A DNA stretch of 64,000 nucleotides, taken from contig JBGUGD010000023.1 in the NCBI GenBank assembly GCA_041697335.1, positions 32,001 to 96,000 on the forward strand, given 5' to 3'. Source of the DNA: Vampirovibrionaceae bacterium NZW_1234 (GTDB lineage Bacteria > Cyanobacteriota > Vampirovibrionia > Vampirovibrionales > JAGQHJ01). Both the position numbers and the translations under genes were made by a program. How positions within the stretch are numbered: the first letter of the stretch is position 1; every line of letters begins with the position of its first letter. The notes below the pieces were generated by a model that was not told where the DNA came from, did not search any database, and saw only the letters and a list, made by a program, of their open reading frames with translations. Shown in pieces: positions 4,680 through 52,284 of the stretch.

Positions 4680-4752
4680 TATTGATCTCGCACTGAGCGA
4701 GACTGGAATTCACCCCATAACGAATCAAGCAACCTGAATCGTGATTATTTCT

Positions 4753-4794
4753 TGTAAAATGCCGGATCCAGGCAATCTGCTCCGGCATTTTACA
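4753..4794 (+). terminator. Hairpin downstream of the pilin gene
   Basis: 14-bp inverted repeat tgtaaaatgccgga/tccggcattttaca. Confidence 0.6.
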
Positions 4795-4894
4795 TTCCCT
4801 CTTCGCCATTTTATCTTCCGTTTTTCTCAAAGAAACCGATAGCGGCGCTATCGTGTGTTTGCCTGAGTCATTTTACGAATAGGACTGAAATTCT

Positions 4895-5530
4895 ATGGCC
4901 GTTTTCACAATTTTGGAAAAACCGGGTTATCAATCCTTGATTCCCAAGGTTGTCACCGGAGTCGCCATTTTGTGGGCCGCACTGGGCGTCATAATCAATA
5001 CCAAGTTTTTGATGGAAGGGCACTGGAATGCACTTGGGGTACTCGCCTATTACTTTTTGCTGATGACATTGTTTGTGATTCGTAAACCCAGCCGGGATGT
5101 GTGTAAGGGGATTAAACATCGTATTACTGCCTTGATGGGGAGTTGGCTGCCACTGCTGATTATGCCAACTTCAACAACCATTGCGGGGATGGAGATAATC
5201 GCCGTGCCGTTGCAAACGGTGGCCTTTGTTTACCTGATGGTGGCCATTATGTCACTGTCTCGCAGCTTCGGCGTGTTTGCAGCGTACCGGGAAATTAAGA
5301 CGGGGGGGCTTTACCGATGGGTTCGTCATCCCTTGTACTCCTCGGAGTTCCTGGGGTTTGTGGCGGTCCTGCTACTCAACCTTTCCTGGTACAACGTGAT
5401 TTTATTAACGGTGCAAATGTATTGTCAGTTGTTACGGATACGGGACGAAGAAAAATTGCTGAGCCAAGACCCGGCTTACGTGGAATATTGTTCTCGGGTG
5501 AGATATAGGCTGGTTCCGGGTCTTTATTAA
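4895..5530 (+). CDS. Isoprenylcysteine carboxyl methyltransferase (ICMT/PEMT) family membrane protein
   Basis: TGGLYRWVRHPLYS motif, EE..L and Y..Y...V.YRLVP C-terminus, multiple TM segments. Confidence 0.85.
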   Translation: MAVFTILEKPGYQSLIPKVVTGVAILWAALGVIINTKFLMEGHWNALGVLAYYFLLMTLFVIRKPSRDVCKGIKHRITALMGSWLPLLIMPTSTTIAGMEIIAVPLQTVAFVYLMVAIMSLSRSFGVFAAYREIKTGGLYRWVRHPLYSSEFLGFVAVLLLNLSWYNVILLTVQMYCQLLRIRDEEKLLSQDPAYVEYCSRVRYRLVPGLY

Positions 5531-20826: not shown

Positions 20827-21061
20827 GGTATCGTCGTCGTTCTGGTGCCAAAGCCGCCCGAGGGCTTGTCTCAAGGGATTCGGCGGTCTTGCAGTGGCAT
20901 GAATGATACTTCCCATCTCTCTCTCTCGTTTCTCTTTTCTTACGCTTATCTTTCTCTATCTCTTTCTCTGTATCTTTCTATCTTCCTTTCTTCGCTCTTC
21001 TCTTCTTCGATATCCTGTTTTCCGGCCTGTATCCTCTTCGGGGTACAGGCTTTCTGTTGGG

Positions 21062-21163
21062 CGCGTGTTTTACGCGTGAATTTCGCGTGATTGGCGCGTG
21101 AAACGCGCGTGTTTTGGTTCTTTTCACGCGCCCCGGCGCGTGTTTTTCGCGTGTTTACGCGTG
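21062..21163. repeat. Phased CGCGTG hexamer array
   Basis: CGCGTG at 21062, 21073, 21084, 21095, 21106, 21137, 21148, 21158; inverted copy at 21125. Confidence 0.85.
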
Positions 21164-21612
21164 AATTTTCAGGGCGGTTTTCAGTTGGCGGCAGCATCCA
21201 TCATTAAAAAGCGGCTGCCTGAAACTGTCTGAAAAGCTTGTGTATTGTGGGTTTTAAGCTTTTTTGTCATTGTTGACTCCAGCGCAGAGGGTGGGGGAAT
21301 GGGGGTGTGATTTTTTATTTTTGGCGATTTTCACGCGGTTTTCCGTGTTTTTACGCGAGTTTCGGTGTTTTTAAGGGTTGTGTATTCTGCTATATCTTTA
21401 TTATATAGATGAAAATGGGCTGATCGGCTGATTTTAAGAATGTTTTAAGAATTGATGGGGCGAAAATGTTCTTTTGAAGAGGGTTGTGTGGTATGGTGGG
21501 AGGGGATGCCCTTGAGCAGGGCTTTCGGAGGAGAGTGTTAATCGGCTGTCGTATGGTCTGAAAGAGGCACGCCAGGTACGATTAAGAATGGGTTTTTCAG
21601 TAAAGGGATGGT

Positions 21613-35559: not shown

Positions 35560-36450
35560 GTGCCCATGGTGATGGCCAAACCCGCGGATAGAAATTCTGC
35601 AATGGAACGTGCATTGACCCGAGCCGACAGGCAAAAGGTAGAGTCCCGGTATTCCAAACAAAATGATGGTGTCGTCTCATTTGAAGAACTGGTGAGCGCC
35701 CGCAAGGAACTGCGTGCCGCCTTGGGTCTGGAGAGCAATACCATCGGGCAGCCTTTGGGCAAAGCCAATATCCGCAGTCTGAATGAAGAGCTCCGTGAAA
35801 CCGAACGGTTGATTAAAAATTTCTACCCCACAGCGGGGCAGGAAAAGAATCTGCTTTACGGCGGCAAAGGGACCAACCCGCGTCGGAATGAAAATATCTA
35901 CACCATTTCCAAAACCGAAGGCCAAAACGTGATTGACGCACCTATCAAGTTAAATGATACCGATATCTCGACCTTGGCCACCGACATCAACCGCACGCGC
36001 GGAAAAGCCTTGGTCGGACAGCCTTTTAGTGCAGAAGATCTGACGCGTTACAAAGGCCAATTGGAAGCAAAACTGGGCTTTAATGATCCATCCATGCTCA
36101 AACAGCTCAGCGATACGGATCGCCAGAGTACGCTGGACCAGCTGAATGCCGTGAACGCCTTGATTGAACAAAAAGATCAGGTGGATGCCAACCGTGACGG
36201 TAAGCTGAGTACCGATGAAATTAAGCGTTATTCCAATGCCAACAATTGGGGAGCCACAGCACCCGCTCCGGCACCTGTGCCAGTTCCCGCTCCTGTTCCG
36301 GTTCCGGCCCCGGTGCCAGTTCCGGCGCCTACGCCAACCCCTTCTCCCACACCGGTGCCTCCACCATCTGAGCCACCAACGGATATCAATGCCTTGCTTC
36401 AAATGCTTCAGACACTGCTTCAGCAATTGCAAGTACTCTGGGGCCGGTAG
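35560..36450 (+). CDS. EF-hand-containing protein with Pro-Ala/Pro-Val repeat linker
   Basis: DANRDGKLSTDE canonical EF loop, degenerate SKQNDGVVSFEE, (PAPVPV)n; AGGAG SD. Confidence 0.7.
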   Translation: MPMVMAKPADRNSAMERALTRADRQKVESRYSKQNDGVVSFEELVSARKELRAALGLESNTIGQPLGKANIRSLNEELRETERLIKNFYPTAGQEKNLLYGGKGTNPRRNENIYTISKTEGQNVIDAPIKLNDTDISTLATDINRTRGKALVGQPFSAEDLTRYKGQLEAKLGFNDPSMLKQLSDTDRQSTLDQLNAVNALIEQKDQVDANRDGKLSTDEIKRYSNANNWGATAPAPAPVPVPAPVPVPAPVPVPAPTPTPSPTPVPPPSEPPTDINALLQMLQTLLQQLQVLWGR

Positions 36451-36540
36451 AAAAAACTTTCTCGTCTTACACCGTTACATTAAAGAAGGTCTGACATGCT
36501 GGACCTTCTTTTCCTTATTTGTCGCTTTTTCACCCCAAGC

Positions 36541-37059
36541 TCAGCGTTGAGCGGTAATGCACTTGATAAGCTTGTCTTCCTGGTTTTGGCAGCCGCTTTT
36601 TTTATGGAGCAACAGTTTTTGCAGCAAGTTCGGGGTGTCCTTACCATGGGTGCTGAAGACAAAGTAAAAAGTTTCCTTGCGGCTATCGGGCCTGGTGAGG
36701 GTCCCAAGGCCATGGCCGCGACGAATACTGTCGGCCACGGGAGTGGCATCCATAGTGGAGCCATCGGAGCAGGTCAGCTGGGCATCGCCGACGAGACCTT
36801 TTACAGCAAGCGGATTCTTGCCGGAATAGCCGTTCATTTTAAACGTCCCGCTACATTGGGTGGGCTCATCCTGAAAGTTGATGGTAATGTGCCCTGTGTT
36901 TGCAAAGGCTGCATGATGCACTTTGCCGACAGCCAATTTGCAGCTTTTGTCCAGTGTGCCGAGCACATCGTATTGGAAGGCATAGGCCACAGGGGCTAGC
37001 ATCAACATTAAAGCCATCACGAGGCGGGCGCTGGAGAGGCATGATTTACTGCGATACAT
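36541..37059 (-). CDS. Hypothetical exported protein
   Basis: Signal-peptide-like LVMALMLMLAPVAYA, several Cys, beta-rich. Confidence 0.55.
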   Translation of the reverse strand: MYRSKSCLSSARLVMALMLMLAPVAYAFQYDVLGTLDKSCKLAVGKVHHAAFANTGHITINFQDEPTQCSGTFKMNGYSGKNPLAVKGLVGDAQLTCSDGSTMDATPVADSIRRGHGLGTLTRPDSRKETFYFVFSTHGKDTPNLLQKLLLHKKSGCQNQEDKLIKCITAQR

Positions 37060-37896
37060 ACTCACTCTCGACCTGGATCCCTTTGCTGCTGTTACTGCCT
37101 TTACTGATAGTATACCCATTTTTGTTGAGCGGAAAACCTTCTGGTTTGAAAGGTTTTCGGTGCACGATTCTTTAAAAGGTCCGTATTCACCAGGGCTGTC
37201 TGAATATGACCAGAATATCTCTGCTTTCAGAAGACAGGTACTCAGGGTAGAACACGAGGTCTATCTATATAAAAACCGGATGCTTTGCCTAAATGCTACT
37301 GTAAGATGAGGTTTTGGAAAGAATTAAGAATCAAAGGCCTTCTCTCAAGGTTCACTTGCTGGATACACGATAGGGACGGTATTGAAACCGAAGGCATTAA
37401 AACGTCGGCAAGACGCATAAACCACTGGAATAATTACTTTGGAGTGGCGTGGGAGGCATCCCTACGTGGTCGGTAATGGTCTGGGAAGGCTCAACGTATT
37501 TTAAAATTGACTGGTCTTTTTTTTGATGGATGAGAGGACTTTTGAAACAAGCAGCTCTGTTATCCTGACAATTGAATCTGCTTTAAATGATTGTAGATGT
37601 GGGTAATTTCCTATCCAAGGCAGCAAATGTATTCTGTTTCATACCGAAACTAACCATACCTAAGTGAAATACCTAACTAAGGCACGATTCTACAGCTAAG
37701 AGAGAGCTGGAGCGCTGGTATCCCGCAAACGGTTTGGGTTGCCAGCATTTTTTTTGACTGTCTGTTGCAGAGAATGCTGACACAAAAGCTGTGGTTTTAA
37801 TACCACCCATACAGACAGTTATTCATAGGACCATCAGTTCAAAGCATAACGGGACTGAACCGCTGTGGAAGAATGGGGCTATTGTGTTTTAAAAGG

Positions 37897-37981
<85 letters not shown>

Positions 37982-38289
37982 ATAAGGGGGTGAATCGGAA
38001 GTAGTGTAACACCCTCTTGGATACAATTCAATGGGGATTTTAGATCCGGCATGGGATTCCCATCCCGAGGCGAATGATCTGGAAAAGCCCGCAGATCAGG
38101 ATTTTAGGACCCGAAAAAAGCGTTCCGGGATACTCATCATCTGCAAATCGTCGCTGATGCCATAAATGTCCTTTTGAAAGGCAGCTCAAGGAATCTAGAT
38201 GATAGTTTTTGAAGCGTTCAAACGTGACGCAATGGAGGGATATCTTTCTGGAGATAATTAGATATCCCACTAGGGACAAAAAGAAAAAA

Positions 38290-38361
38290 CTCCCCAGGTA
38301 GGATTCGAACCTACAACCGATCGGTTAACAGCCGATTGCTCTGCCATTGAGCTACTGAGGA
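38290..38361 (-). tRNA. tRNA-Asn(GTT)
   Basis: TCCTCAG/CTGGGGA acceptor, AGCTCAATGG, CT-GTT-AA loop, GGTTCGAATCC; CCA not encoded. Confidence 0.97.
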
Positions 38362-38578
38362 ATGTGTAAAACCAGTCTCAACAACTGATTGTATTCAGTA
38401 TTGTAACAAGAATTGCCAAGAAGTAAAGGGAAGGTTGGAGGATTGCGAAAATCAACACATGTGCTAAAGGCTTTTTGCGTTCGGGCGTTACAATTATTTA
38501 TATTTTATATATCTTTGGCAATTTTAGGATATCCGATGTTTTTATTATCTTACGAAGAGACATTAGAGGGTTTTAATT

Positions 38579-40582
38579 GTGGGATACGGTCCTACTAATT
38601 ATGCGAATAATTTGCAGCAGCAGGTGAACAATTCGTTCCAGCAGCAGCGGCAAAGAATGATGAACCCGGCTCTGACTGGAGTAAGTTCCGATCAGCAGCT
38701 CAGTGCTCTTCAGTTGGCTGGTTTAGCACCGGGTGGGACAGTATTAGGCGATAATAGGCGCATTGCCGGAATTAGCATGGATTACCTGGGCCTGCCCCGG
38801 AATCCCATGGATCCGAATTCCATTATTGCGAATTTTGACCGCAATTATGGGCAAAACATCTTCTCGTACGCAACCGCATTGGGTGGCCCCAATAGCCTGG
38901 CGTCTCAACTCGATCGATCGTATCGGGAAGCCTTGGCCAAACAACAAGGCCGTCCACCATTTATGCCCATGCCCGGTGGTATGCAAGGGGGCTTCCCACA
39001 GCAAGGGTTCCCCGGCGGCTTTCCGCCTCAAGGCTTGCCTCCTGGCTACGGGTTTCCGCAACAAGGTTTACAGGGTGGTTTCCCGCCTCAGGGAGCCTTC
39101 CCGCAACAGGCTGGGTTTATGCAGCCGGGTTTCGCCCCAGGGCAACAAGTTCCCAATCCGTTTGGTCAGACAGGTAATAATATTAATGCCTTGCCGCAGG
39201 CGTCTAATCCATTCCAGCAGGTTCAAGCCGGTGGACAGATTCCAGGGCAGATAGGCCAGGTTCAAGGTATTGCCGGTGCAGTGGGTGCTGCCGCAGCGGG
39301 TGCAGTCGGTGCGGCCGGGGCGATGGATCCAATGACGATTATTATTCTGTTCCTGGTTCTGGCTCAGCTTACAAAAGGTAAGAAGGAACCTCCCATCCCA
39401 TTTGAAGGCTTCGAACTGGATAAGATCCTGAAAGCCATCAATGTTCAGGTGCCGGTGGACGCCAAGGACAGAGAAAAATTTGACGTCATCATCATTAACG
39501 AGCATAAACTCGATGCCCTGATGACTCGACTCGCCATTGATCCGGAAGATTATATTGAGCTTGAAAACAAGATTAACGCTGTCTTCGAGCGAGAGACAAT
39601 CGTTGATACCTATTTGACGGAATTTGGTTTCAATCCGCAGAATTACCTCTACGATATTGCCGGTAAGCTCGGCGCTCTGGAAACCAAGCAAAATCAGATC
39701 AACTTCCTGTATGCCAACATCGAATCCGACCCACCGGCTAACATTAACCTGATGGGTAAGCTGGACAAGTTGGCCGAGAGCAAGGAAGAACTTCGAGAGC
39801 TTGCAGCCCTGGTTGAATTAGATCCGCCGGAAAATGCCAAGCTGCCGGAATTCTATACGGCCTTGTTCAACAAATCCTTGGAATTGAACGGTTGGCTTAG
39901 CGAGTTTGGTTTGCCGGCACCGGCTGCCAATGCCACAATCCAAGACAAGCTGACCAGTCTGGAATCAGCACGGGCTGAAATGGATTACCTGTTGGTCAAT
40001 TTGGGACTGGATCCCGATGACTACGACTCCATTTATAAAGCTGCCAGAGCTGTTATTCAGAAAGAGGCCGATATTAATGCGTTGCTGATAAAAGCACAAC
40101 TGCAACCGGGTAATTACCAGACCATCGCCGATAAATACGACGCCCTGGTCAATAAGGAACTCGAGATCGATAGCAGTGGTCTGCTTGATGACTACGGTAT
40201 GGATGTCTCCGATGATGCCAGCTTGGCCGATAAACTCACGATGATTAAACAGGGCCGTACCGAAATCGAATTCCTGTTCCTCAACCTGGGCCTTGATCCG
40301 GCCGACTTTGATGGCGATCTCGACATCTTCAGTGAGATCCTGATCTATGGCGACGAGATCGATCAATTGCTGGAAGAGACGGCTGGCCTTGATGATGAGC
40401 CTGTTCCTCCGAATGCCACCTTGCGTGACAAGTTCAACATCCTGAAGGCTCGAGATGAGATGCTGACAGAGATATTGGAATCGCTGGATGAGGATCCTGC
40501 CGAATATCCCACCATCAAAGACAAGTTAGAGTTTCTGGAAGAATTGGCCGAGGAATTGCCGGAGGATGAACCTGAGTTCTAA
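38579..40582 (+). CDS. Hypothetical protein: Gly/Gln/Pro/Phe-rich N-terminus, one hydrophobic helix, acidic about 31-aa helical repeats
   Basis: 667-aa ORF, GTG start after GAGGG; GFPQQG repeats; L..LGLDP.DY..I.DK repeats. Confidence 0.8.
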   Translation: MGYGPTNYANNLQQQVNNSFQQQRQRMMNPALTGVSSDQQLSALQLAGLAPGGTVLGDNRRIAGISMDYLGLPRNPMDPNSIIANFDRNYGQNIFSYATALGGPNSLASQLDRSYREALAKQQGRPPFMPMPGGMQGGFPQQGFPGGFPPQGLPPGYGFPQQGLQGGFPPQGAFPQQAGFMQPGFAPGQQVPNPFGQTGNNINALPQASNPFQQVQAGGQIPGQIGQVQGIAGAVGAAAAGAVGAAGAMDPMTIIILFLVLAQLTKGKKEPPIPFEGFELDKILKAINVQVPVDAKDREKFDVIIINEHKLDALMTRLAIDPEDYIELENKINAVFERETIVDTYLTEFGFNPQNYLYDIAGKLGALETKQNQINFLYANIESDPPANINLMGKLDKLAESKEELRELAALVELDPPENAKLPEFYTALFNKSLELNGWLSEFGLPAPAANATIQDKLTSLESARAEMDYLLVNLGLDPDDYDSIYKAARAVIQKEADINALLIKAQLQPGNYQTIADKYDALVNKELEIDSSGLLDDYGMDVSDDASLADKLTMIKQGRTEIEFLFLNLGLDPADFDGDLDIFSEILIYGDEIDQLLEETAGLDDEPVPPNATLRDKFNILKARDEMLTEILESLDEDPAEYPTIKDKLEFLEELAEELPEDEPEF

Positions 40583-40665
40583 TTCCGGGATGCTCGATAG
40601 GCATTTCAACCATTGAATAAGACCAAGAAGTAATACAAACAGAACGATTATAGGAACCAAGACCG

Positions 40666-41895
40666 ATGTATACTCAGCCCAACTTTACATTAACCCCACA
40701 AGGAGCACAGCCCGGCATGCTGGGTGCTGCTAACCTGGGTGTGGGCGCCATGAATACAAATGGCCTCACCATGGCCTACGGTCAAAACCTTTATGGCAAT
40801 GTCGCCAATTGGGGCGCTGCGTCACCGGGTATGGTGGCCCAGCCAGGCTGGTCGGACTTACAGACAATGCAAGGTGGGTCGCCATCGACCTTTGGCATGG
40901 CCGCATATCCTGCGGCACAACCCTTGGGTGGGGGCGATATCATGAGCAGTCTGACCGGTGCCGTCAATGTTCAACCCAACAGTTTTCTGGATATTGCCGG
41001 GATTGTCGGGGCGCAACAATCGGCGGCCCTGTTTAATCAGATGCCGCAGATGAACCCTATGGGCAATTTAATGAACCCCTCCGGGATGATGCCGGTTATG
41101 TATGCGATGCCACAAGTCACGCAGCCAATGATGACACCGCAGATGATGATGCCCCAGATGATGCCAATGCCCATGATGCCGCAATTTCAGTTTATGCCTG
41201 GGGCTCCCATGATGACCATGCCCTTTGGCATGTCTCCTCCCACAACAAACACCGCGGTTGATTCGGCGGCGATTGGGGCGGCAGCAATTTTGGCTGCTTT
41301 AAAAGGAGCTGCCGATGGCGGATCTTCATCGAAATCAACCAAGACCTTTGAGAACGCCGCATCCGGAACGAATACTCCGGCTACGGAAAACACCACAATT
41401 ACGGATAACAATCAGTCGCAACAGGCTGTCATCAACAGTCTGAACCAGCGAGTGGGTCAGTTGGAATCGCAATTGGCACAATCCCAAACGCAACTAACTC
41501 AGGCTCAGGCCCAGTTGGCCCAGTTGCAGCAATCACAACAGAATCAATCGCAGACGGGTACCAATTCCACGCAAACCAACACGACCCAGACCAATAACAC
41601 CCAGACAGAAACGACTCAAACCGGTAATACCCAGACAGAAACCACAGAAACCAACGCACAGACGGGAACGGGGGCAACCCAGACCGGCAACCAAACCCCA
41701 TCTGGAGAAACGGGTCAAACCCAAGCTTCGTCCGGAGGAACTCAAACGACACAAGAGGCCTCCCAGGAAAATAATACATCGACCCAACAAACTCAGGAAT
41801 CCAATGCCATTGATGATATGAGCAATGCCGTCAACGCGATGCTCGACAATCTGGATGATTGGACAAATGATGACTCGGAAGTGATTGAGGCATAA
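40666..41895 (+). CDS. Low-complexity protein: Met/Pro/Gln-rich, coiled coil, Thr/Gln/Asn-rich tail
   Basis: 409-aa ORF with AGGAA SD, co-oriented with the upstream gene. Confidence 0.75.
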   Translation: MYTQPNFTLTPQGAQPGMLGAANLGVGAMNTNGLTMAYGQNLYGNVANWGAASPGMVAQPGWSDLQTMQGGSPSTFGMAAYPAAQPLGGGDIMSSLTGAVNVQPNSFLDIAGIVGAQQSAALFNQMPQMNPMGNLMNPSGMMPVMYAMPQVTQPMMTPQMMMPQMMPMPMMPQFQFMPGAPMMTMPFGMSPPTTNTAVDSAAIGAAAILAALKGAADGGSSSKSTKTFENAASGTNTPATENTTITDNNQSQQAVINSLNQRVGQLESQLAQSQTQLTQAQAQLAQLQQSQQNQSQTGTNSTQTNTTQTNNTQTETTQTGNTQTETTETNAQTGTGATQTGNQTPSGETGQTQASSGGTQTTQEASQENNTSTQQTQESNAIDDMSNAVNAMLDNLDDWTNDDSEVIEA

Positions 41896-42545
41896 TCGCT
41901 TCATTCAAAGGCGGATACTATTGGAAAACCAGAGAGAGAGAGAGTAGACAGCAAAGAGAATAAGAAGAAACAGAAGAAGAGATTGAGAGAATGAATGAAT
42001 GTAGCGAGTAGAAGGTAAAACGTCGAGAAGCGAGTTAAATGTAGGATTGGAAAACAAGAACGTAGGAAAACAAGATCGTAGGAACCTGTTGGAAAACCAG
42101 AGAGAGAACAAAGAACGAAGAAGAAAACGAAGAAGAGAAGAGACCCTAGGAAGAAAGTAGCGAGAGAAAGAGAGAAGAAACAATCAAGGCGATGAAAGAA
42201 GAAAAACAACATCAATAATTAAGGCACGTGTAGGAATGAAAGTAGGAACGGTGAATCGGAAAACAAGAACGTAGGAAACACCCAGTGCTGGGAGACAAAA
42301 GACGAAGAAGAGAGAGAGACGGAAGAGAGAGCGAAAGAGAGAGAGAGAGAAGGAAGAAACATATGAGTGCAAGAGGCGGTAGCGTGACAGAGGAGAGGAA
42401 CTCTCGGAGAGCATCCCAAAGATGCATTCCGATCGCAGGTTATGGTCAATCGACCGGGGCGGTTTCGCTTACGATTCCCTTGGATAGACCTCCATATGGA
42501 TGGTGGGGACTATCCAAAAATGATAGTAACCCAGAGAAAGAGAAG

Positions 42546-42701
42546 ATGATGCAAGAACCAGTCACCTTTGACCGTCATGAATCCACGGAAAACATGGATA
42601 CGTCAATGCACTATGAACCGGACTTCACACCCCAGGGGCCGAATCCTGGATGGATGACCATGGCCTCTCACGCTGTGCCGTTTCTTGGCAGTTCAATCTG
42701 A
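42546..42701 (+). CDS. Possible 51-aa small protein inside the purine-rich region
   Basis: Normal-composition ORF MMQEPVTF...; weak support. Confidence 0.25.
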   Translation: MMQEPVTFDRHESTENMDTSMHYEPDFTPQGPNPGWMTMASHAVPFLGSSI

Positions 42702-43050
42702 TCATCAGATCAGGCGTGTTTTTCTGAGTCCTGCATCAGAAACCGGATTTATTGGAAAACAACACCCCACTTCGAAGGAGAACCTGACCCGAGAAAGATG
42801 AAGAGAGAGAAAAAACGAGAAAGAGAGAAACCAACACAATCGGAGAACATAAAAGCGCAGTTGAACCAATCATCTGTAGCGTGACTACGAGAGGATAAAG
42901 GAGAGAGGAAAACCCATGCCCTGCCGATGCGGCAGCGTGGCTTGGTCGAAAGAGGAGAGAGAGGAAACCTGAACCATAAATAGCCACGTCTCAAGGCTTT
43001 GGTCTACCCGATCATGTTTGAGACGGTTATTGAAGCAAAACCATCACCAC

Positions 43051-43560
43051 AGAAAGGAGGCCTTATCGAGCAAACTCGACCGGATAAAGACACAATTACA
43101 CTCTGATAAGAACGGATTATTCTTCCCATTGCGGTACGTCTTTTTGCCAGCCGAAAGGAGGTCCTATCGAATAAATTCGGCCCAGAGTATCATCAATCAC
43201 TCTCAAAACAGGAATTATTCTTCATTGATGTATTGTGTCCACCCAAAACAAAAAGGAGGTCTTATCGAGTAGACTCAGATGACGTCTTATAATGACGCTC
43301 TATAACGGAATTATTCTTCACATTCATGTCCCGACAATCCAACCGAAAGGAGGTCCTACCCCGAGAAAAAAATGACTCTAACATCTACACTACGCTCTTA
43401 AATAAAACGGATTATTCTTCAAAACCCAACGTCACATCCCCACAACCAAAAAGGAGGCCCATCCCCTAGAAAAAAGACTCTAACATCTACACTACGCTCT
43501 TAAATAAAACGGATTATTCTTCAAAACCCAACGTTACATCCCCACAACCGGAAAGGAGGA
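43051..43560. repeat. Array of five about 100-bp degenerate units plus a sixth partial box; candidate ncRNA array
   Basis: AAAGGAGG at 43053, 43154, 43252, 43346, 43450, 43552; GG(A)ATTATTCTTC at 43114, 43211, 43307, 43409, 43511. Confidence 0.9.
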
Positions 43561-43704
43561 CAATCACCCAGAAAGAGAGAGAGAGAAAAGACGAAGGACT
43601 TTATTCACGATAAGCGAAGAGAAAAGGAAAGCGAAGAGAGAGAAAAACGAAGAAGAGAAGAAGAAGAAGAGATAACGCGAAGAGAACAGATCCAAGAGGA
43701 TCCA

Positions 43705-44880
43705 TTACGAAGAAAAGCTTTCCTCCATTAATTCACACAGTGTTTTATACACGTAGAGAGACGCCGGCTGTTGCCCAAGCGTCTCTTTTATTTTGCCAAG
43801 CTCCTGGTCGGCCAGTTCTCTCTCAGGGCTGGGCTTAAGGTAGGGGCCAATGGCTTTGGCATAGTTTTCCGGCGTTACGTCGGCCATCATCAACTCCGGG
43901 AGGAAGCCCTCCGGGCGTTCGGACAGAATGTTCGGCAGCCCGATGTGAGTGACATATTTAAAATGCTTGAAGAACCAGTAGGCGATCGCCGACAGTTTGT
44001 AGGAAATCACCGATGGGGTTCCGTATAGCGCAGCTTCCAGGGTAATGGTTCCGGAGGCGGCCAGAATGGCCTCAGATAATGCCAGAATAGCCTCGTTGCG
44101 TCGCTCGATAATCTGGAAGGAAACGCCTTTCAGGGTATTTGTGTATGGGGCCATGGTGGCGTCCAGGAATTCCTGGGTAATTGCCGGTGACTTGGCCAGC
44201 AAAAACTGGAAGTCCTGTTGATGCTGCTGGTTGATGCGAGGAAGGGCTTCCAGCATGGGAGGCAGAAGACTCCGAATCTCCATTCGGCGGGAACCGGGGA
44301 AAATGCCGATAATCGGCTTTTCCGGATCCAGGCCGAATTCGTTACAGAATTTCAACCGGTCCGGTGGCGGTGCCATGGCTTCGGCCAGGGGGTGGCCCAC
44401 AAAAGTGGCCGGGATGGCCTGGGCGTCGTAAATGGGCTTTTCAAAGGGGAAAATACAGAAGACATGATCCACGTATTTCTTGATGCTCTTCAAACGCCAG
44501 CGCTTGGAGGCCCAGACCTGGGGCGGGATATAGTAGAACACGGGAATACCCAGGGCCTTGAGACGCTTGGCCAGATGCAGGTGAAACATGCCATAGTCAA
44601 TCAGCAGAACGGCATCGGGCCGCCACGCGTGTGTGAAATGCCGGATCAGATCATTGGCCAGACGCAGGTGATAAGGAATCGCACCCAGGAACCCGATGCC
44701 AAGCACACCGAGCTTTTCCTGGCGATGAAAGAGGGTTACCCCGGTTTCTTCGATAAACGTGCCGCCAATGGCCTGTATTTCCACATCGGGGCGGTGTGTC
44801 TGAAACTGTCGAATGACACGGGCACCATGCACATCTCCGGATGCATCACCGGTGCTTACAAAGAGTCGTTTGAAGCTCAT
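43705..44880 (-). CDS. lpxB: Lipid-A-disaccharide synthase
   Basis: STGDASGD, LIDY, YIPPQVWA, FVGHPL, FPGSR, ASGTITLE; ATGA overlap with the upstream gene. Confidence 0.95.
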   Translation of the reverse strand: MSFKRLFVSTGDASGDVHGARVIRQFQTHRPDVEIQAIGGTFIEETGVTLFHRQEKLGVLGIGFLGAIPYHLRLANDLIRHFTHAWRPDAVLLIDYGMFHLHLAKRLKALGIPVFYYIPPQVWASKRWRLKSIKKYVDHVFCIFPFEKPIYDAQAIPATFVGHPLAEAMAPPPDRLKFCNEFGLDPEKPIIGIFPGSRRMEIRSLLPPMLEALPRINQQHQQDFQFLLAKSPAITQEFLDATMAPYTNTLKGVSFQIIERRNEAILALSEAILAASGTITLEAALYGTPSVISYKLSAIAYWFFKHFKYVTHIGLPNILSERPEGFLPELMMADVTPENYAKAIGPYLKPSPERELADQELGKIKETLGQQPASLYVYKTLCELMEESFSS

Positions 44881-45764
44881 AAGGCAAGAAAGGTCATGTG
44901 CCACTGATCGGCCAACCGAGTCATTTTGGGCAGATCCAGAACCAGGGTTTTGTGTGCCTCCACCGCCAGCACTTTCAGCCCGGCCTTACGCATGGAGACC
45001 AGGGTCCGGGGGCCGACCGTGGGGACATCAAAACGCTGATCCTGGCCGGGCTTTTCCACTTTGGCCACCACGCCCCCTTTTTTACCGGTCCACTTGCCGG
45101 AGCGTCGAATGGCCTGGTCGGTGCCTTCAATGGCTTCCACGGCTATTACCATGCCGTTATGGACAATTACGGTCTGCCCGATATCCAGGCGGCCCATTTC
45201 CCGAGCCGTGGTCAGAGCAAACTTGATATCGTCCGCCTCTTTATCCGAAGGCGGCCGCTGACTGTACTGCCCGGGTGGGATGAGTGCCGAAGTCAGGTAG
45301 TGGGTCTGAGGGAGGACTAAAATGCCCTCTTGTTCTTCAAACTCCCGAATAATCATCAGCATCACGTTATCGTCGTTCAGCTGACGGCTTTGCCGAAACA
45401 AGGCCATCGCCCGGGCATCCAGAACCGGGTGCCGGAGCAGGACCCACTTGTTGACTTTGCCCCCAAAGACCGCATGGGTCAGGCCGTGCTCATGCATGAG
45501 ACGGAAGTTTTTATTCAGGAGCCCGGGCTTGGTGGGATGGACCCGGTTGGCGGGCAGACGTTTACGAAAGGCACTGACGTTGCCGGGATCCATGGCATAC
45601 ACAAACACGGTCAATCCTTGCGAGAGCATCGTTTCAAGCATCATTACCGGCAGTTCGCCTTCACCGGCAACCAGGCCGACAATGGCAGTATTGGGGTCCA
45701 GGCGGGTATCGGCAGGCATGGCAGTCGCGTTTTCTGTCAGCATTTCAGAGGGCATGGTGTTCAT
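44877..45764 (-). CDS. lpxI: UDP-2,3-diacylglucosamine diphosphatase LpxI
   Basis: GLVAGEGELP, DIGQTV, AVEAIEGTD, KPGQDQRFDVPTVG; start uncertain. Confidence 0.92.
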   Translation of the reverse strand: MNTMPSEMLTENATAMPADTRLDPNTAIVGLVAGEGELPVMMLETMLSQGLTVFVYAMDPGNVSAFRKRLPANRVHPTKPGLLNKNFRLMHEHGLTHAVFGGKVNKWVLLRHPVLDARAMALFRQSRQLNDDNVMLMIIREFEEQEGILVLPQTHYLTSALIPPGQYSQRPPSDKEADDIKFALTTAREMGRLDIGQTVIVHNGMVIAVEAIEGTDQAIRRSGKWTGKKGGVVAKVEKPGQDQRFDVPTVGPRTLVSMRKAGLKVLAVEAHKTLVLDLPKMTRLADQWHMTFLAL

Positions 45765-46019
45765 ACACAGGCCATGGTGAGGCCGTTCTGGGTTTATTGT
45801 GCTACGACCCAGTGTATCATGTCCAAGGACACCCCGACGGAAATAGGGTCCGAAGAAGCCTAAAAAGAAACCCTCCTGCACGCTGGAAGGCATACAGAAG
45901 GGTAATGACATTCCCAAGTGGGTCTTATATGGGTTGTGACTTGCTCGTGTGGCTTTCTGCTGAACTTTTTACGGATGGGTTTTCTCGAGACGTTTTTCCG
46001 GCAATTTGTTGATACGAGT

Positions 46020-46406
46020 TTATCGGTAAACCATCCGCTCCCGACTGGCATTGATGGCTACAAACAATGCCGAGAACGTAATCAACAGGTGCAACCAGTT
46101 GTCTGCCCGGTTGATATGAATCATGTTAAACAACATGCCCCGATCCGGCGTCATCACAAATCCCAGCAAGGTTACCAGACCGTAGGCTATAACCAGGTAC
46201 CAGGCATAGCCAATGGCCAAGCGGGTCTCTCGGTATCCGGCAGCCCATATCCCAATGATTCCGGACAGAATGTGAATAATATTGTGTGGGGTATTTACCG
46301 CAAAAATGCCCAACAAGCGTCCATCGGGTGTGAGGCCCGGTATAAAACCAAGGACACCGATGAGTAGAAACACGATGCCCATTACAAAGGCAAACGAACG
46401 AACCAT
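46020..46406 (-). CDS. Four-TM small membrane protein (DUF4383-like)
   Basis: GIFAVNTPHNIIHILSG and N.ADNWLH motifs; GGAGGAG SD. Confidence 0.8.
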   Translation of the reverse strand: MVRSFAFVMGIVFLLIGVLGFIPGLTPDGRLLGIFAVNTPHNIIHILSGIIGIWAAGYRETRLAIGYAWYLVIAYGLVTLLGFVMTPDRGMLFNMIHINRADNWLHLLITFSALFVAINASRERMVYR

Positions 46407-46641
46407 AATCTTACTCCTCCCCTTTCATGGATGACCTGGGTTTCTCCAAACCATGATATTTCTGCTACCACCTTAACGGATGGGGCACTCCTTTTCATTC
46501 CCCAGCTCACGGATGTCTCCTGAGCGTTCAGCCGGATTGCTGATGCCCGCTTCGGCAATCTGTCATGCCCAAGCGCAACTTTTCGGCTTGACCTCCCTTT
46601 ATTGGAGGGTTCCCCTGATGCTGGTTGATGAAAGGAAATTG

Positions 46642-48153
46642 ATGAGAGTTTGTGAGATTCGGACGGCCCTAAAGGCTGTTCCCTCCGATAAAAGGGCCTC
46701 ATATACCCCTGTATTGCCTTTGTCCTCCAGGCCGGTCTCTTCGCCAGTCACGAATGACCTTCGTTTTTCCGGCGCTTCTGCTCGGATTCGTTTGTTGTTG
46801 GCCTTTTCGGCACTTTGGGGCGGTTTGACGGCACTGCCATATCCGGCGGTTACCCTGAAACAGGTGGACCCGAAGGTCCGTCAGGAGCGGATGGCGCAGG
46901 ACGATTTGGCCTTATTTAAAGAACTCTATCAGCTTAAAGCCGAATACAAGACCATCTATAAGGCTTACTCGGCCAATCTGGACAAACGCCAGCAGGCGGA
47001 AAAGGTGCTGCGCAATTATCTGAAATTGCAGCCGGAAACCTTGAAAGCCCTGCACGTTCAGGCCGAAAAGGCTCAGGTCCTCTTTAGCCCGGACTTGCCT
47101 GCCGAGGCATTGATGAGTGAGACGGTTTTCCAGGCTTTACCCGAGGCTGCCCGACAAGATCAGCGTCTGGTGCGGTGGCGAAAGCTCTATGCCAGCCTTG
47201 AGGAAGAAGCCCGAGAATTGTACCCAACCGTGGATAGCCGGTTTAAAGCCTATGCACGCTTTATTGGAGTCAACCAATCCGCCCTGGTTCATGCCATCAA
47301 CCGAAACCGTGTTGAGCCGCCTGTGGCCAACCCGAAGAACCCATTGCCTGATAATGTCAGAACCATGGCCGCCACTCTGCAACAGGATTCCGTCATTCAA
47401 GACGGCTTTACCGGGAGCAATATGGCAATGCGTCAGTTTATCCGAGCCCTCAGCCTTACAGAGTCCATGAACTCAGCCTATAATGCCCTCGATGAAATGC
47501 CCTTGCGCTTGCAGACCTATAGTCCCGAGATCCAAAAGCCAATTTCGACCTTGCGATCGGATCCGGCGTGGAAGCTGCATTGGCAAAAGCGGCACAATGC
47601 GGATCCGTCCGTCACCCGCATTGCCATTTTAATTCCCACGGAAGGCAATGATGCGTTGGAGGAAATGAATTTTGCCGACCAGATGACGCAGCTTAAAACG
47701 GCCTTGACGGATCCCAAAACAGGGTACCGCGTTGATTCGGTGATTCTGCCGCCCCCTGCCCAAAAAGAAGACGGGATTGTCCTTTTTCCGTCCTTTGAAG
47801 GCCGGGTGAACCGGGCCTTTGCCCAGGCTTGCCAGGAGCGGGATAGAATTCTGGCCGAGCGACCCGGGCAGAAGGTCGAGTTTTTTGTGGCCTGGATGGG
47901 CCACGGCGGGGTGGACACCAAGGGCCGCCCGACCCCGCAGGACCCGGATTCCTTGGATTTTTACCGCCAGGGCACCGGTGATTTTGTCCTAGGGCTAAAT
48001 CGCTGGGAGAGCCTCCCCCCCAAAAAACGGCATGCCTTGCTGGCCAGCCTCGGGGGACCGACCTTCGAGCTCCTGATTGCCTGCCACGCCGGAGCCGGCA
48101 TTTGTAAACAAGTTGAGTCACCGTGTAAGCCTGATGCGAGTCGTCTCACTTGA
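46642..48153 (+). CDS. Hypothetical protein with LRFSG leader, helical middle and C-terminal caspase-like (clan CD) His-Cys motifs
   Basis: FFVAWMGHGG and LLIACHAG; AAAGGA SD before ATG 46642. Confidence 0.65.
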   Translation: MRVCEIRTALKAVPSDKRASYTPVLPLSSRPVSSPVTNDLRFSGASARIRLLLAFSALWGGLTALPYPAVTLKQVDPKVRQERMAQDDLALFKELYQLKAEYKTIYKAYSANLDKRQQAEKVLRNYLKLQPETLKALHVQAEKAQVLFSPDLPAEALMSETVFQALPEAARQDQRLVRWRKLYASLEEEARELYPTVDSRFKAYARFIGVNQSALVHAINRNRVEPPVANPKNPLPDNVRTMAATLQQDSVIQDGFTGSNMAMRQFIRALSLTESMNSAYNALDEMPLRLQTYSPEIQKPISTLRSDPAWKLHWQKRHNADPSVTRIAILIPTEGNDALEEMNFADQMTQLKTALTDPKTGYRVDSVILPPPAQKEDGIVLFPSFEGRVNRAFAQACQERDRILAERPGQKVEFFVAWMGHGGVDTKGRPTPQDPDSLDFYRQGTGDFVLGLNRWESLPPKKRHALLASLGGPTFELLIACHAGAGICKQVESPCKPDASRLT

Positions 48154-48229
48154 TCTTTTTCTCATCAGAATGTTTCGGGGCCATTATTGTCTCAACACAG
48201 TGGCTTCCTCCGGTTGTCGTGAGTTGTAA

Positions 48230-48256
48230 TCAACTTTTTTGAAATCTGTCCGATAC
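48230..48256 (+). promoter_or_regulatory. Possible sigma28-type promoter
   Basis: TCAA-N15-TCCGATAC upstream of ORF 48324. Confidence 0.35.
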
Positions 48257-48323
48257 TCTAGGACATCATCCAACGGGCCTTGTCCTGGTTCACAATTAAT
48301 CTGAAGAGAGGGGAATCGTCGCC

Positions 48324-48725
48324 ATGGTTAACCCGAGTCAACCCACCGGTCCTTACCGTCCTTCTGAACCTTTAAACCTGGCTTCCTCCCAGACTGAAGT
48401 TTCACCTGGGTCTGTCTCACCGCAACCATCGCCACCTCCTTCACTTCGCCACGACACATTTGAGCTATCCCCATATTTATCGGAGCAAATTCAGCCCATT
48501 GAGAAAGAGCCATCCCCTGCAGTGGAGGCGCTGTCGATTCTATACAACGAGCCGGTGAATACGTTTCCGTGGTACTACCCCATCGATTCCAATACCCACG
48601 TCAGCAAGTTGGAGTTGCAAGACTCTAATCTCTATAAGTTTCAGAATATCAGTTCATTCTCGGAATTACATTATTTGAGTCCCCAAATTAATATTGTGGG
48701 CAAACGTGATTTTTATATCGATTAG
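48324..48725 (+). CDS. Pro/Ser-rich hypothetical protein
   Basis: GAGGGG SD; N-terminus resembles ORF 25772. Confidence 0.6.
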   Translation: MVNPSQPTGPYRPSEPLNLASSQTEVSPGSVSPQPSPPPSLRHDTFELSPYLSEQIQPIEKEPSPAVEALSILYNEPVNTFPWYYPIDSNTHVSKLELQDSNLYKFQNISSFSELHYLSPQINIVGKRDFYID

Positions 48726-48883
48726 ACGTGTTGTAAATTAAAAGAGAATCTCCTTAAGCCATCGGGTAAAGCAGGAGCGTTTTTATCGTGGCCAGACTAT
48801 GAAACTCATGGGGGAAGGTTTTCTGGCTGCCTGCATCGATTGAGGAAAAACCTGATGGGGAATCAGGTGATGAGCCCCATGTC

Positions 48884-49264
48884 TCAGGCTTGTAACGCAG
48901 GCGAGGTTCGACGGTTCAGCAAATATCCCAGCAGGCCTATTGAAGGTGAAAACAGGAATAGGGGTAACCAATACCAGCATCGCCGGGGGTGTCCTTGACG
49001 CACGCTGTCCTGAATCATCCACAAATACACCAACCCGGCGGTCGCCCCAAAATCAATCAAGGTGACCTGATACAAGGGATCATGCAGGGTTTGATGCCAG
49101 AAATGAAAATGGGTCCCGAGAATGCCGCCTTGCTCCTTGAGCCAGGCCTGACTGAAAGGGATTTCCAATAGAATAAACACCACCGTATAAAGCCAAAGTA
49201 AACTTTTTCGTTGTAACAAGGCATCCAACCCCATCGGCCACATCTCCTGAAAAGTTGTAAACAC
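48884..49264 (-). CDS. Small three-TM membrane protein (DUF2834-like)
   Basis: TLIDF...WMIQD...PSIGLLGYL pattern; start uncertain. Confidence 0.6.
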   Translation of the reverse strand: MFTTFQEMWPMGLDALLQRKSLLWLYTVVFILLEIPFSQAWLKEQGGILGTHFHFWHQTLHDPLYQVTLIDFGATAGLVYLWMIQDSVRQGHPRRCWYWLPLFLFSPSIGLLGYLLNRRTSPALQA

Positions 49265-49625
49265 AGCGAATACAGAGTATCACAACCTTGTGTGACCCTA
49301 TTAATACCATCACGCGATATGTTTCATCTTTTGTCCGAGAAGCAAATAAATCAGGCTCTTGGATAAGGTGTTATCTTGAGCCGACATGTGACCTGGATTC
49401 GTTATTGAAAGGTGATCTAACGCCACAGACAAAATACGTCAGATCAATAATTGAGGGTTTCTATAGGCGAGAATCCTTGAAAGCACTGAATTAGAGGTTG
49501 CTATTAAATATGTCTGACACAAATTAAACTATGAATGTTTTTATAATTATAAGTGATATATTTTGATATGGGCTTTGTAATTACCAGGCGTACATAGGCG
49601 TTATAAACTCAGGAGGGCTTTTTGC

Positions 49626-50276
49626 ATGCCAGACTTTCCATCGAATGTAAGTCGTCGAGGGACTGATCCTTACCTGCAAAACTATACTGAACAAGTCAAT
49701 CGAGCGTATTATGGGGCGACCCCGCCTGCTGTGAAGAGTTCCAGTGAGGAAAAAATTGCAGAGTCCCGTGCAAGACTAGGCTTATCCCCGTTGATAACCA
49801 AACCGGCGGTAAAGGAACCCTCGTCTTCGGCTCTCCCAGGTGTACCAACGGGGGTTGGGGAAGCCATTACGACGGGAGAAAATTTATTGCCCAAATCGAA
49901 TCTGGTGAAAGGCCTCGGAAAGACCGTTTCTTACGTGGATGGTGCGATTAATGTTGTCAATATTGCCAAAGGCATCGCAGAGGGTAACAGAGGCCAGGTG
50001 GCAGAAGGCGTCTATAACTTAGGAAAGGCCACCTTGCCGCCCAATATTTCAGGTCCCTTGATCGTTGGGGAACTCTTGGTGAATGATCCTGCTGTTCAAT
50101 TGGAAATGGGTACTGTTCGAACCCTTGGTGGATATATGCCTGCACCAGGAAAAACCGTAGAGGACTTGTTGCCTCAGACAAGACGTGCAATGGCGAATTT
50201 TAATCTGAATAAGACGCCCTACGATCCACCACCGCGACCGGCTCCTACTCGGCACGAGACGTTGAATGGCGATTAA
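49626..50276 (+). CDS. Hypothetical protein
   Basis: AGGAGG SD; 216 aa; Gly/Ala/Val-rich amphipathic central segment. Confidence 0.7.
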   Translation: MPDFPSNVSRRGTDPYLQNYTEQVNRAYYGATPPAVKSSSEEKIAESRARLGLSPLITKPAVKEPSSSALPGVPTGVGEAITTGENLLPKSNLVKGLGKTVSYVDGAINVVNIAKGIAEGNRGQVAEGVYNLGKATLPPNISGPLIVGELLVNDPAVQLEMGTVRTLGGYMPAPGKTVEDLLPQTRRAMANFNLNKTPYDPPPRPAPTRHETLNGD

Positions 50277-50490
50277 TATTTCGCCATAAAGGAGTCCATG
50301 CGCTGTCGATAATGCCAATCATACTGGCATCTCAGTCATACGAGTTCCTTAAATTGAAAGCCTTATTAAGCTCATTGTTGATTTTCCGGGCAGTTTAAAT
50401 GCTTTGCCCATTGATTAGACAGGGCGTAGCATTTGTCATTACGCACGTTTCTAGATACACATCTCTCAAGTCTTCGGGACCTTGATAAGC

Positions 50491-50534
50491 CTGAAACCAA
50501 ATTTGCACGTCAGAGAAACTCATGACGTGCGAAT
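50491..50534. repeat. 44-bp hairpin-forming direct repeat, copy 1
   Basis: ctgaaaccaaatttgcacgtcagagaaactcatgacgtgcgaat; 43/44 identical to 52541-52584. Confidence 0.9.
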
Positions 50535-50634
50535 GAAAGTTGTAAGCACAGCGCTTCCAGGGTATCACGATCACCTGACATCACACCAAACCCTTAAATG
50601 CTTTATACCCGATCTGCCCCCCAGAGGAACTTCA

Positions 50635-52284
50635 TCATGCAGGGTTGTCAGCCAAGGTGACGGATTGTGTTCGGCTCAAGAGGGAGGTATAGCCTTCCAG
50701 TCGACCGGTCGGGCGAATCTTGTTGCGAAATTCGTTATTTTCACCAATGCAGCGAATAAAGATACTGTACTCAGCACAATTCACGGCAATGCTGTTGCCG
50801 TTGCGATTCAGGCGGAGCTCTCCCTCATCAGTGGCATTATAGAGCGCCGCGAGGTCAAAAAAGAGGAACGGGAGATTGGGAGTGTCTTTATGAAGCGTGA
50901 CCACAAAGGTGGCGGGTTTCCCGCTATGCTCCACAAGGGCATCTTTGAGAACTTTACGCACCGTTTCCGGGGTGGTTTGACTGGGGCTCAAATCCAGTTG
51001 AATGATGGGTTCCCGGTTTTGTGATTTGGCATAGTGCTGAATTGACCAATCGAACTCGGACTGACTGTTATTTTGAGGGTCAAAGACCGTGAAGAGGTGC
51101 TGCCGACTGAGCAGACTCTGCCCCACATAGCGGTTTAGCTTGTGGATTTTACCAATGTTGAGTTTGGACGTATTGGGATCAATAGCCAGTTTTTCGTCGA
51201 TAGTATTAATATGATGATCCGCTTGAGAAACAATACCATAATTACCGCTATTCCAATCATAGCCAAGATAGCGGGTAAACCAGCGTTTGGCTTCCGCTAA
51301 TTCTTTTTGTTCGGATTCCTGATGGGGCGCGATTTGTTTTTCCCAAGCCTGCAGCCCATTGAGCATTAAGTCCTTTAGGGGGGGTAAGGGCTTTTCATCA
51401 ATCAGGCCGCATGTTTTAAAGACTTCTTTTCGCAGAAAGGTGAAGAAGTCTTTCGGGGTAATTCGTTGTGACACAAAATTAATATTAGAATGAACAATTA
51501 TATCTGCCTTGATATCATTGCGAGCTTCATAGTCGTTTATATTCTGGTAGGTTTCGAGCAGGGCTTTGGGAATAAGCAACGAGTTCGGGCTGATAATTTC
51601 ATTATAGAATGCTCTTTTTTCGCCGGAGTGAATCGCATGAAAATAAGTTGCTGCATTGGTCTGTTGAGTAAAATTAATCCGATATTTATTTAAATTTAAT
51701 TTGTTTTGAGCATCTAAGCTTCTCCAATTTTTGCAATTATTGTCCCAGAGGTTGGAGAAGACTTCGATTAACGCAGCCTTATCTTGGACATGCTCAGCAT
51801 GCTTATGGAGTAAATGCTGCCACAGGGTGGTTTTCTTACTGTCTTTCAACGAAGAATCTTCACGCCGTTGCAACAGATTCAGAATGGCCTCATCTCGTTG
51901 TGCTTTCGGGAGTTCTGCCAGCCGTCGATCAATACCGGACTTTGTCTCAAAATCGGTGGGAAGCCAGCCACGTTTCAAGTTCGTGACCCAGCTGGGAACA
52001 TCTGCGGTAACTGTCTTGCCCGAGCTTTTAGAAGACGCGGCATTGCCTCTGAAATAGGCAATAACGCGGCGAACATAATCCATAACAATGTCTGCGATGT
52101 TGACAAAAAAACGGGTCACACTCTTCAAAAGTCTCCTGAACGGGCCTGGTGAGCTTGCCGTGTCGGCAGTTTTGGTTTCCGAAGCAAACCGAAGGTGATG
52201 AGTTTGTTTTGTGCTGGGTAATATCAGCGACGTCGGGACAAAACGGGAATGTGTGTGAACCGGATTGCACGATTGAAGGGACAT
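50635..52284 (-). CDS. Hypothetical protein with LRFAS leader and amphipathic helix
   Basis: 549-aa ORF, AT-rich centre, no recognised catalytic motif. Confidence 0.75.
   Translation of the reverse strand: MSLQSCNPVHTHSRFVPTSLILPSTKQTHHLRFASETKTADTASSPGPFRRLLKSVTRFFVNIADIVMDYVRRVIAYFRGNAASSKSSGKTVTADVPSWVTNLKRGWLPTDFETKSGIDRRLAELPKAQRDEAILNLLQRREDSSLKDSKKTTLWQHLLHKHAEHVQDKAALIEVFSNLWDNNCKNWRSLDAQNKLNLNKYRINFTQQTNAATYFHAIHSGEKRAFYNEIISPNSLLIPKALLETYQNINDYEARNDIKADIIVHSNINFVSQRITPKDFFTFLRKEVFKTCGLIDEKPLPPLKDLMLNGLQAWEKQIAPHQESEQKELAEAKRWFTRYLGYDWNSGNYGIVSQADHHINTIDEKLAIDPNTSKLNIGKIHKLNRYVGQSLLSRQHLFTVFDPQNNSQSEFDWSIQHYAKSQNREPIIQLDLSPSQTTPETVRKVLKDALVEHSGKPATFVVTLHKDTPNLPFLFFDLAALYNATDEGELRLNRNGNSIAVNCAEYSIFIRCIGENNEFRNKIRPTGRLEGYTSLLSRTQSVTLADNPA

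Follow-up and report, generated by a model that had tools for sequence, protein, structure and literature searches.

A single-copy intergenic array of start-less Shine–Dalgarno words and GGA boxes, a possible decoy for CsrA

A tandem array of about 100-base, non-coding units occupies positions 43053–43559 of the window (the whole stretch of 64,000 nucleotides that was analysed) and consists of five full units and the head of a sixth. It is a real, single-copy repeat that combines start-less Shine–Dalgarno (SD) words with GGA boxes. On the preferred reading, to which a probability of about 0.4 is attached, the array would be expressed as a plus-strand RNA resembling flagellin leaders, a decoy that takes up the translational repressor CsrA.

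Units, boxes and folding of the array

Box A, the word AAAGGAGG, stands at 43053, 43154, 43252, 43346, 43450 and 43552; the word search agrees with an earlier note on this DNA, which had reported six copies at spacings of 101, 98, 94, 104 and 102 bp. The GG(A)ATTATTCTTC word of that note was recovered in 5/5 full units (43114, 43211, 43307, 43409 and 43511), whereas AC[A/G]CTCT, also assigned to every full unit, is exact in four of the five, unit 2 reading TCACTCT. The near-identical 74-bp stretch claimed for units 4 and 5 is present, and none of the six box A sites has ATG, GTG or TTG 2–12 nt downstream, in line with the earlier description of an SD without a consistent start codon. The features of the array are as follows.

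43053–43060, +: box A of unit 1, a start-less Shine–Dalgarno / ANGGA site (AAAGGAGG) whose 16S-tail duplex has −16.5 kcal/mol
43068–43081, +: hairpin of the earlier note, unit 1 copy; weaker in units 2–3 and absent in units 4–5, not a conserved structure
43099–43125, +: box B (CACTCT) and box C (ACGGATTATTCTTC) of unit 1
43154–43223, +: unit 2, box A to box C, box C reading CAGGAATTATTCTTC
43252–43319, +: unit 3, box A to box C
43346–43420, +: unit 4, box A to box C
43450–43522, +: unit 5, box A to box C; the body is the 74 bp common with unit 4 (one mismatch), the heads differ
43552–43559, +: box A of the partial sixth unit

Units 1–4 are 48–62% alike, and units 4 and 5 are 83% alike. The unit profile matches only its five source units in the genome (E 5.5e-20 to 2.5e-14; the next match has E 2.6), and the search for further units found none beyond the array. 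When unit 5 is left out as a recent copy, 30 of 90 gap-free columns show no variation, with runs of 10 and 8 among them (column shuffle P ~5e-6). Because aligners exaggerate such blocks, a neutral simulation with indels and realignment was run, on a star tree with uniform rates and without gene conversion, and 0/340 runs reached 10 columns in one block or 8 in a second. Boxes A and C are therefore probably under selection, as far as a simulation lacking gene conversion can indicate. GGA lies at the centre of both invariant blocks; 10 of the 11 box sites read ANGGA and the eleventh CAGGA, with neighbouring box GGA sites 42–60 nt apart. The excess of ANGGA over the array (10 vs 3.3) is not independent evidence, because the array is a repeat. 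In one public DNA run, low-depth contigs cover 42501–43403 and 43374–43505 with no differences, an agreement that is not independent because the run may be the source sample. The 132-nt contig at 43374–43505 (one period plus 30 nt, units 4–5; run X1) has a depth of 12.5 vs ~4 beside it, a weak hint, at low depth, of extra copies of unit 4/5 beyond the assembly.

The element is defined by these sequence boxes, not by a fold. In the case of the hairpin placed after the first box in units 1–3, the letters are present, but the covariation claimed for it is not borne out: 60% of cells pair, two-sided change is confined to one instance in a single pair, and by covariation score the hairpin does not differ from shuffles (231/500). 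Single units are not more stably folded than their shuffles (z −0.15 to +1.85 in 10/10 folds), contrary to the proposal of a structured RNA. RNAalifold gave no consensus structure on the plus strand and four weak pairs on the minus strand, folding of the whole array was poorer than shuffles on both strands (z +1.6 and +3.1), and an Rfam scan, suggested earlier as a check, matched no family. The 11 box GGA sites are predicted to be mostly paired, with unpaired values of 0.03–0.29 at 37 °C and 0.10–0.44 at 55 °C.

Genomic setting, strand and distribution

The genome, of an uncultured flagellated bacterium whose gene content suggests membership of the Vampirovibrionia (Melainabacteria), comprises 3.7 Mb and is 95% complete; the window lies on its contig C30, and the genomes compared include no congeneric one. 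The DNA runs that contain the stretch carry the labels hot spring or microbial mat, and no RNA run was listed as containing it. The array lies in a spacer of 1809 nt (41896–43704), purine-rich on the plus strand, between two plus-strand orphan genes and the convergent lpxB.

38579–41895, +: orphan genes of 667 aa and 409 aa, no Pfam match; possible source of read-through transcription
41907–42415, +: upstream GGA-rich purine tract with TTGGAAAAC and GTAGGAA repeats, predicted largely unpaired and possibly in the same RNA
42482–42509, +: anti-SD segment, 75% complementary to the unit heads over 28 nt, 540 nt upstream
42546–42701, +: candidate small ORF of 51 aa with a purine leader; codon score at the 98th percentile of intergenic ORFs
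42979–43031, +: stable hairpin with its 3' end 21 nt before the first box A; it may be the 5' stem-loop of a separate or processed RNA
43560–43700 (full tract 43546–43722), +: purine-rich tract 3' of the array
43686–43705, −: candidate lpxB terminator, a hairpin at the stop codon followed by a pyrimidine tract
43705–44904, −: lpxB, the convergent neighbour (Pfam LpxB, E 7e-76)
43755–43797, +: candidate intrinsic terminator, a hairpin followed by TTTTATTTT, within the last codons of lpxB

The hairpin at 42979–43031 is predicted at −20.3 kcal/mol on the plus strand vs −11.8 on the minus strand (z −1.7; pair probabilities 0.75–1.0), and that at 43755–43797, missed by a simple scan, has a z of −3.82 (0/200 shuffles). 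On the opposite strand, the hairpin at 43686–43705 (z −2.2) reaches −9.8 vs −6.1 on the plus strand, and the lpxB message appears, on these predictions, to end short of the array. Several orphan genes, both here and in the genome G004, carry purine-rich leaders that indicate their sense strand. The flanking hairpins, the purine-rich sense leaders and the purine-rich plus strand of the spacer together make the plus strand the likelier one for the candidate array RNA. A promoter scan found no promoter on the plus strand beside the array. A scan with a sigma28 consensus gave no convincing match, and this held for the regions before the three flagellins as well; the 95% complete genome yielded no Rho, Hfq or LSm.

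Several further features share the spacer. The tract at 41907–42415 contains 15 GGA, all predicted to be open (unpaired 0.42–0.97), with GGAA occurring 12 times vs 5.6 in shuffles, and is perhaps a better cluster of CsrA sites than the array. The segment at 42482–42509 forms the best duplex of the upstream spacer with the unit heads (−23 to −32 kcal/mol); it is possibly an inverted copy of a unit head, a cis-pairing element or a long-range pairing switch. No relatives of the 51-aa ORF were found, no match being better than E 0.03. The stretches 42363–42400 and 42916–42972 are related, each with an ATG, then GCGG[T/C]AGCGTG and then a purine tract, and the 10-mer is unique to them genome-wide. 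An ops/JUMPstart reading of the perfect GGCGGTAGCGTG at 42375 (E 0.28) was rejected, because only one NusG-family gene, and no RfaH paralogue, was found in the genome and the word belongs to this local repeat.

In this lineage, the 5' leaders of orphan low-complexity genes are long and AG-rich and frequently contain GGA (examples below), and G004 carries three tandem relatives of the N-terminus of the 667-aa protein.

Present genome (G000), AG-rich leaders: C23:83585, C8:70271, C8:12278, C12:32446, C9:15598
L050, AG-rich leader: 2135–5200

Outside this genome, the array was not recovered in any collection searched. A blastn search of 40 relatives gave a best E of 0.016 over 22 nt, and a sequence-only model gave isolated, scattered matches in 48 genomes of the order (best E 0.012). 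Pattern searches returned 0/48 order genomes for a triple SD, 0/300 class genomes for SD-ACGGA-SD, and 0 matches each in metagenome, GTDB and viral contigs for two-box patterns. A generic triple-SD scan of GTDB yielded at least 121 stretches, and 0/80 of those retrieved match the unit profile (best E 0.07). With LpxB as bait, 62 metagenomic loci were found at 28–42% identity only, so that no close relative was reached, and AAGGAGG occurs within 600 nt downstream in 0/28 other lpxB loci examined. In G003, the tRNA-Leu, the tRNA-Asn, the orthologue of the 667-aa protein and lpxB are syntenic, with 61 nt and no array between the last two; the 409-aa gene and the spacer are therefore lineage-specific at this locus. 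A search with the 667-aa protein matched itself only, with no Atlas match.

Other intergenic arrays exist in the genome. One family, built on TGAGTAAAA with a period of ~42 bp, is dispersed over the six loci listed below. A second, built on TTCACGCG/CGCGTG with a period of ~33 bp, has one copy at 20830–21610 of the window. Such degenerate arrays are many, which keeps the reading of a decayed repeat in play.

G000 C23:105053–105790: TGAGTAAAA family array
G000 C30:122094–123159: TGAGTAAAA family array
G000 C14:95503–96262: TGAGTAAAA family array
G000 C21:39444–40766: TGAGTAAAA family array
G000 C8:151876–152580: TGAGTAAAA family array
G000 C27:26842–27627: TGAGTAAAA family array

CsrA, flagellin leaders and the competing readings

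A csrA gene, which the earlier note proposed to look for, is present on contig C5, adjoining fliW, and its product keeps L4 and R44, residues whose role is described in section 4 of PMC7652899. CsrA was found in 40 of the 41 genomes searched. According to the same section, CAGGA is the core of the CsrB repeat; the review also reports that a CsrA dimer bridges sites 10–63 nt apart, that CsrA prefers hairpin loops, and that FliW is anti-correlated with BarA-UvrY, the system driving the Csr sRNAs (PMC7652899).

The flagellin leaders of this genome are GGA-enriched relative to shuffles in two of three cases (15 vs 8.7 and 10 vs 6.2; the third has 6 vs 5.3), and the spacer has words in common with them, including TTGGAAAAC and AAAACAGGAA. 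ACGGA sites are frequent in 29 flagellin leaders from this genome and its relatives. A matrix made from these 29 leaders places 11/11 box sites at the 92nd–99th percentile of intergenic GGA sites, a ranking that is circular for box A because the matrix includes true ribosome-binding sites. An extra upstream SD-like word occurs in 10/30 flagellin leaders vs 138/1458 other leaders, in a comparison that has unequal windows, kin that are not independent and two leaders from one genus, and in which 1–2 of the 10 have an ATG near; the 30 leaders were drawn from 80 domain matches. The spacer ranks first of 2794 intergenic strands for the share of GGA among GG (52/88), on genome-wide statistics from a simple gene caller with 3165 genes; this excess is gone once GA richness is kept (52 vs 48.7, p 0.25). 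Flagellin leaders of the family carry a second, start-less SD 130–160 nt upstream of the true SD, and one such word, GAAAGGAG(G)CTGAT, is aligned between the flagellin leaders of G000 and G003, which belong to two genera. The leaders with a start-less SD are the following.

G000:C26:160270–160460, −: flagellin leader
G003:C166 ~38130–38294, +: flagellin leader
L055, L194, L199, L183: flagellin leaders

From the nucleotide sequence we infer that the array is transcribed, from which strand and between which ends, that CsrA would bind the product, and that this would have an effect. The candidate plus-strand RNA may be a separate or processed species of ~820 nt, from the hairpin at 42979 to the terminator at 43797, or belong to the orphan-gene transcript as its 3' trailer. 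Each unit would offer two GGA sites, a perfect start-less ribosome-binding site and an ACGGA/CAGGA box, in the manner of flagellin leaders. By bridging adjacent sites of the array, CsrA dimers would be diverted from flagellin and other mRNAs. The array may have grown by tandem duplication, with selection retaining the boxes. The distances of 42–60 nt fall inside the bridging range of 10–63 nt, which fits such a decoy. Against it stand the predicted pairing of the GGA sites, whereas CsrA prefers hairpin loops and no conserved hairpin presents the sites; a density of about one site per 50 nt, below that of CsrB; the invariant UUAUUCUUC / TTATTCTTC, without a role in CsrA binding, and box B, which CsrA does not account for; the reported anti-correlation of FliW with BarA-UvrY; and the failure to find a plus-strand promoter beside the array, any homologue in the collections searched, or an array at the syntenic locus of G003. 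Of the earlier suggestion of a CsrB-like GGA sponge on the plus strand, the sponge is the favoured option, given csrA, the GGA-centred boxes and hairpins that favour this strand, and the structured RNA is not supported.

The strongest competitor, though an unlikely one, is a tandem repeat in decay that has no function now and that would have arisen by amplification of a purine-rich leader, with patching by short gene conversion. Its case includes the absence of the array from the relatives searched, the many other degenerate intergenic arrays of the genome, the lack of a conserved structure, and the 74-bp homogenised tract of units 4/5 beneath different heads. Moreover, start-less AAAGGAGG tandem repeats occur in unrelated bacteria, where 31/80 loci pass a non-coding filter, most of them near-identical. 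What speaks for retention instead is that the two invariant blocks stay in register across four units, as in none of the 340 neutral simulations, and that the array has strand-biased hairpins on its flanks. Since GGA is part of every perfect SD, box A fits ribosome docking equally well: in a STAB-SD-like array, the start-less SD would park 30S subunits, shielding the RNA or 100-nt pieces from decay, or titrating subunits. The duplexes of −12.2 to −18.4 kcal/mol with the genome's own 16S tail (5/6 at or below −14.8; only 2.2% of 3157 called genes reach −14) agree with docking, as do some flagellin leaders that also carry start-less SDs, and a start-less strong SD stabilises RNA in Bacilli, as described in PMC3997798. 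In a variant, RNase E might cut at the AU-rich box C and so set free units whose SD lies ~40 nt from the 5' end; RNase E is present and AUUAUU fits the cyanobacterial signature A(−3/−4), U(+2) given in PMC8682795, but that signature is short and common, and the assignment of the invariant TTATTCTTC as an RNase E site is speculation. Docking leaves the second GGA box unaccounted for. It is further weakened because there is no long downstream coding sequence to protect and RNase J, the nuclease blocked in Bacilli, was not found (its domain PF22505 went unmatched in 41/41 genomes and matched in 10/14 controls); the reading is judged quite unlikely. The 41 genomes, in which this RNase J beta-CASP domain was not found, are of the order, and the cyanobacterial control has it.

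The remaining readings carry less weight. Operator and iteron arrays typically consist of short invariant boxes with free spacers. The array resembles them in this respect, and two sigma70-like matches on the minus strand use box C as a −10 element, as might be expected if the boxes served as double-stranded DNA sites for a regulator or nucleoid protein. Such a DNA-level array is nevertheless improbable: the spacings of 94–104 bp do not keep to a single helical phase, box C has no family elsewhere in the genome, the promoter-like matches are weak (4 vs 1.9 expected), and box A, as the complement of 16S, points to RNA. Still less probable are tandem anti-SD sRNAs on the minus strand, cut from the lpxB 3' trailer and blocking ribosome-binding sites like CcsR/cuckoo RNAs. 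Every unit does read CCUCCUUU on that strand, downstream of a gene, and CcsR RNAs are tandem and derive from a 3' UTR (described in PMC8034643). Yet the motif lies outside any conserved hairpin loop, lpxB has a hairpin and a pyrimidine tract after its stop codon, and no Hfq match was found. Their targets, proposed earlier for checking, did not emerge: across 1509 start regions with an SD, 6/6 heads formed no duplex that surpassed those of shuffled-flank controls (8 per head). Tiny genes started at ATC, or remnants of a coding repeat, are the least probable of these readings. An ATC lies 3–4 nt past the SD in 5/6 heads; the products would have 13, 2, 2, 2 and 16 residues, the SD spacing is below the genome mode of 8–9 nt, the periods 101, 98, 94 and 104 break the frame, and ATG ORFs across the array score negative on codons. 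A guide-like array, also proposed earlier, found no effector: Cas1 occurs on contig C14 only, with its own array of 66-bp period, and there is no Nop-domain match. The earlier statement that no cas gene is nearby held in a Pfam scan of 12 ORFs at 35560–52284, the sole Cas1 of the genome being that of contig C14. That locus (C14:90569–92315), with Cas1 beside the 66-bp-period array, is an ordinary CRISPR locus.

If the decoy reading is true, the array would be an RNA antagonist in a FliW system, and the regulator would have arisen recently by duplication of a leader module, because the relatives lack the array. A fuller version, somewhat unlikely on the present sequence evidence, is that of a dedicated non-coding CsrA antagonist, derived from a tandem-amplified flagellin-leader-like module beside FliW in a non-photosynthetic cyanobacterial relative. 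Cleavage of this RNA by RNase E at box C might, on this version, give 100-nt decoys able to hold CsrA or 30S. Whether FliW and small RNAs act jointly on CsrA in any species is still to be determined, according to a statement in a 2020 review (PMC7652899), and the portions of the open literature covered, concerning this lineage or RNA antagonists in connection with FliW, yielded no description of such an element. The array is a short, defined candidate for which the RNA, CsrA and a flagellin leader all come from one genome; as a decayed repeat it would be of little importance.

Comparison with known systems

Compared with CRISPR and TIGR-like arrays, the spacers here are homologous to each other and not unique, and the repeats are not near-identical. 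Compared with the RNA arrays of type III toxin–antitoxin systems, no plus-strand gene follows the array; in the search for ToxN, none of the controls matched. CcsR/cuckoo RNAs share with the array tandem units downstream of a gene and an anti-SD word (on the minus strand in the array), as described in PMC8034643, but the array lacks their two-hairpin fold and CCUCCUCCC loops, and the evidence favours the other strand. A DUF1127 gene, the neighbour of CcsR, was not found by Pfam in 12 neighbouring ORFs. The STAB-SD and polypurine stabilisers of Bacillus (cryIIIA, gsiB) likewise have a strong start-less SD and purine tracts, as set out in PMC3997798; the array differs in its six copies, in lying outside a 5' leader (no plus-strand gene is downstream, lpxB being convergent) and in that no RNase J was found in the 41 genomes.

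CsrB/CsrC and RsmX/Y/Z of Gammaproteobacteria resemble the array in being non-coding, in having many ANGGA/CAGGA sites and in the presence of csrA in the genome. The array has long two-box units instead of short GGA hairpins, its sites are sparser and predicted to be paired, it has no Rfam match, and its host has FliW. By fold or Rfam match, the array is not a member of the CsrB/Rsm family. CsrB is about 370 nt long. Its repeats number ~18 in the account of PMC7652899.

In the case of Campylobacter jejuni, the flaA leader belongs to a FliW-type system, as does the array, and carries a pair of ANGGA sites, one of them over the SD (PMC4894983). In contrast, the array is six-fold, has neither start codon nor flagellin gene, and lies away from the flagellin locus, which is on contig C26. 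Its sites are 42–60 nt apart and not 21 nt, and it has no covarying stem-loops. According to the same source, the flaA mRNA leader titrates CsrA beside FliW (PMC4894983), and an RNA sink within a FliW system, such as the array may represent, therefore has a precedent.
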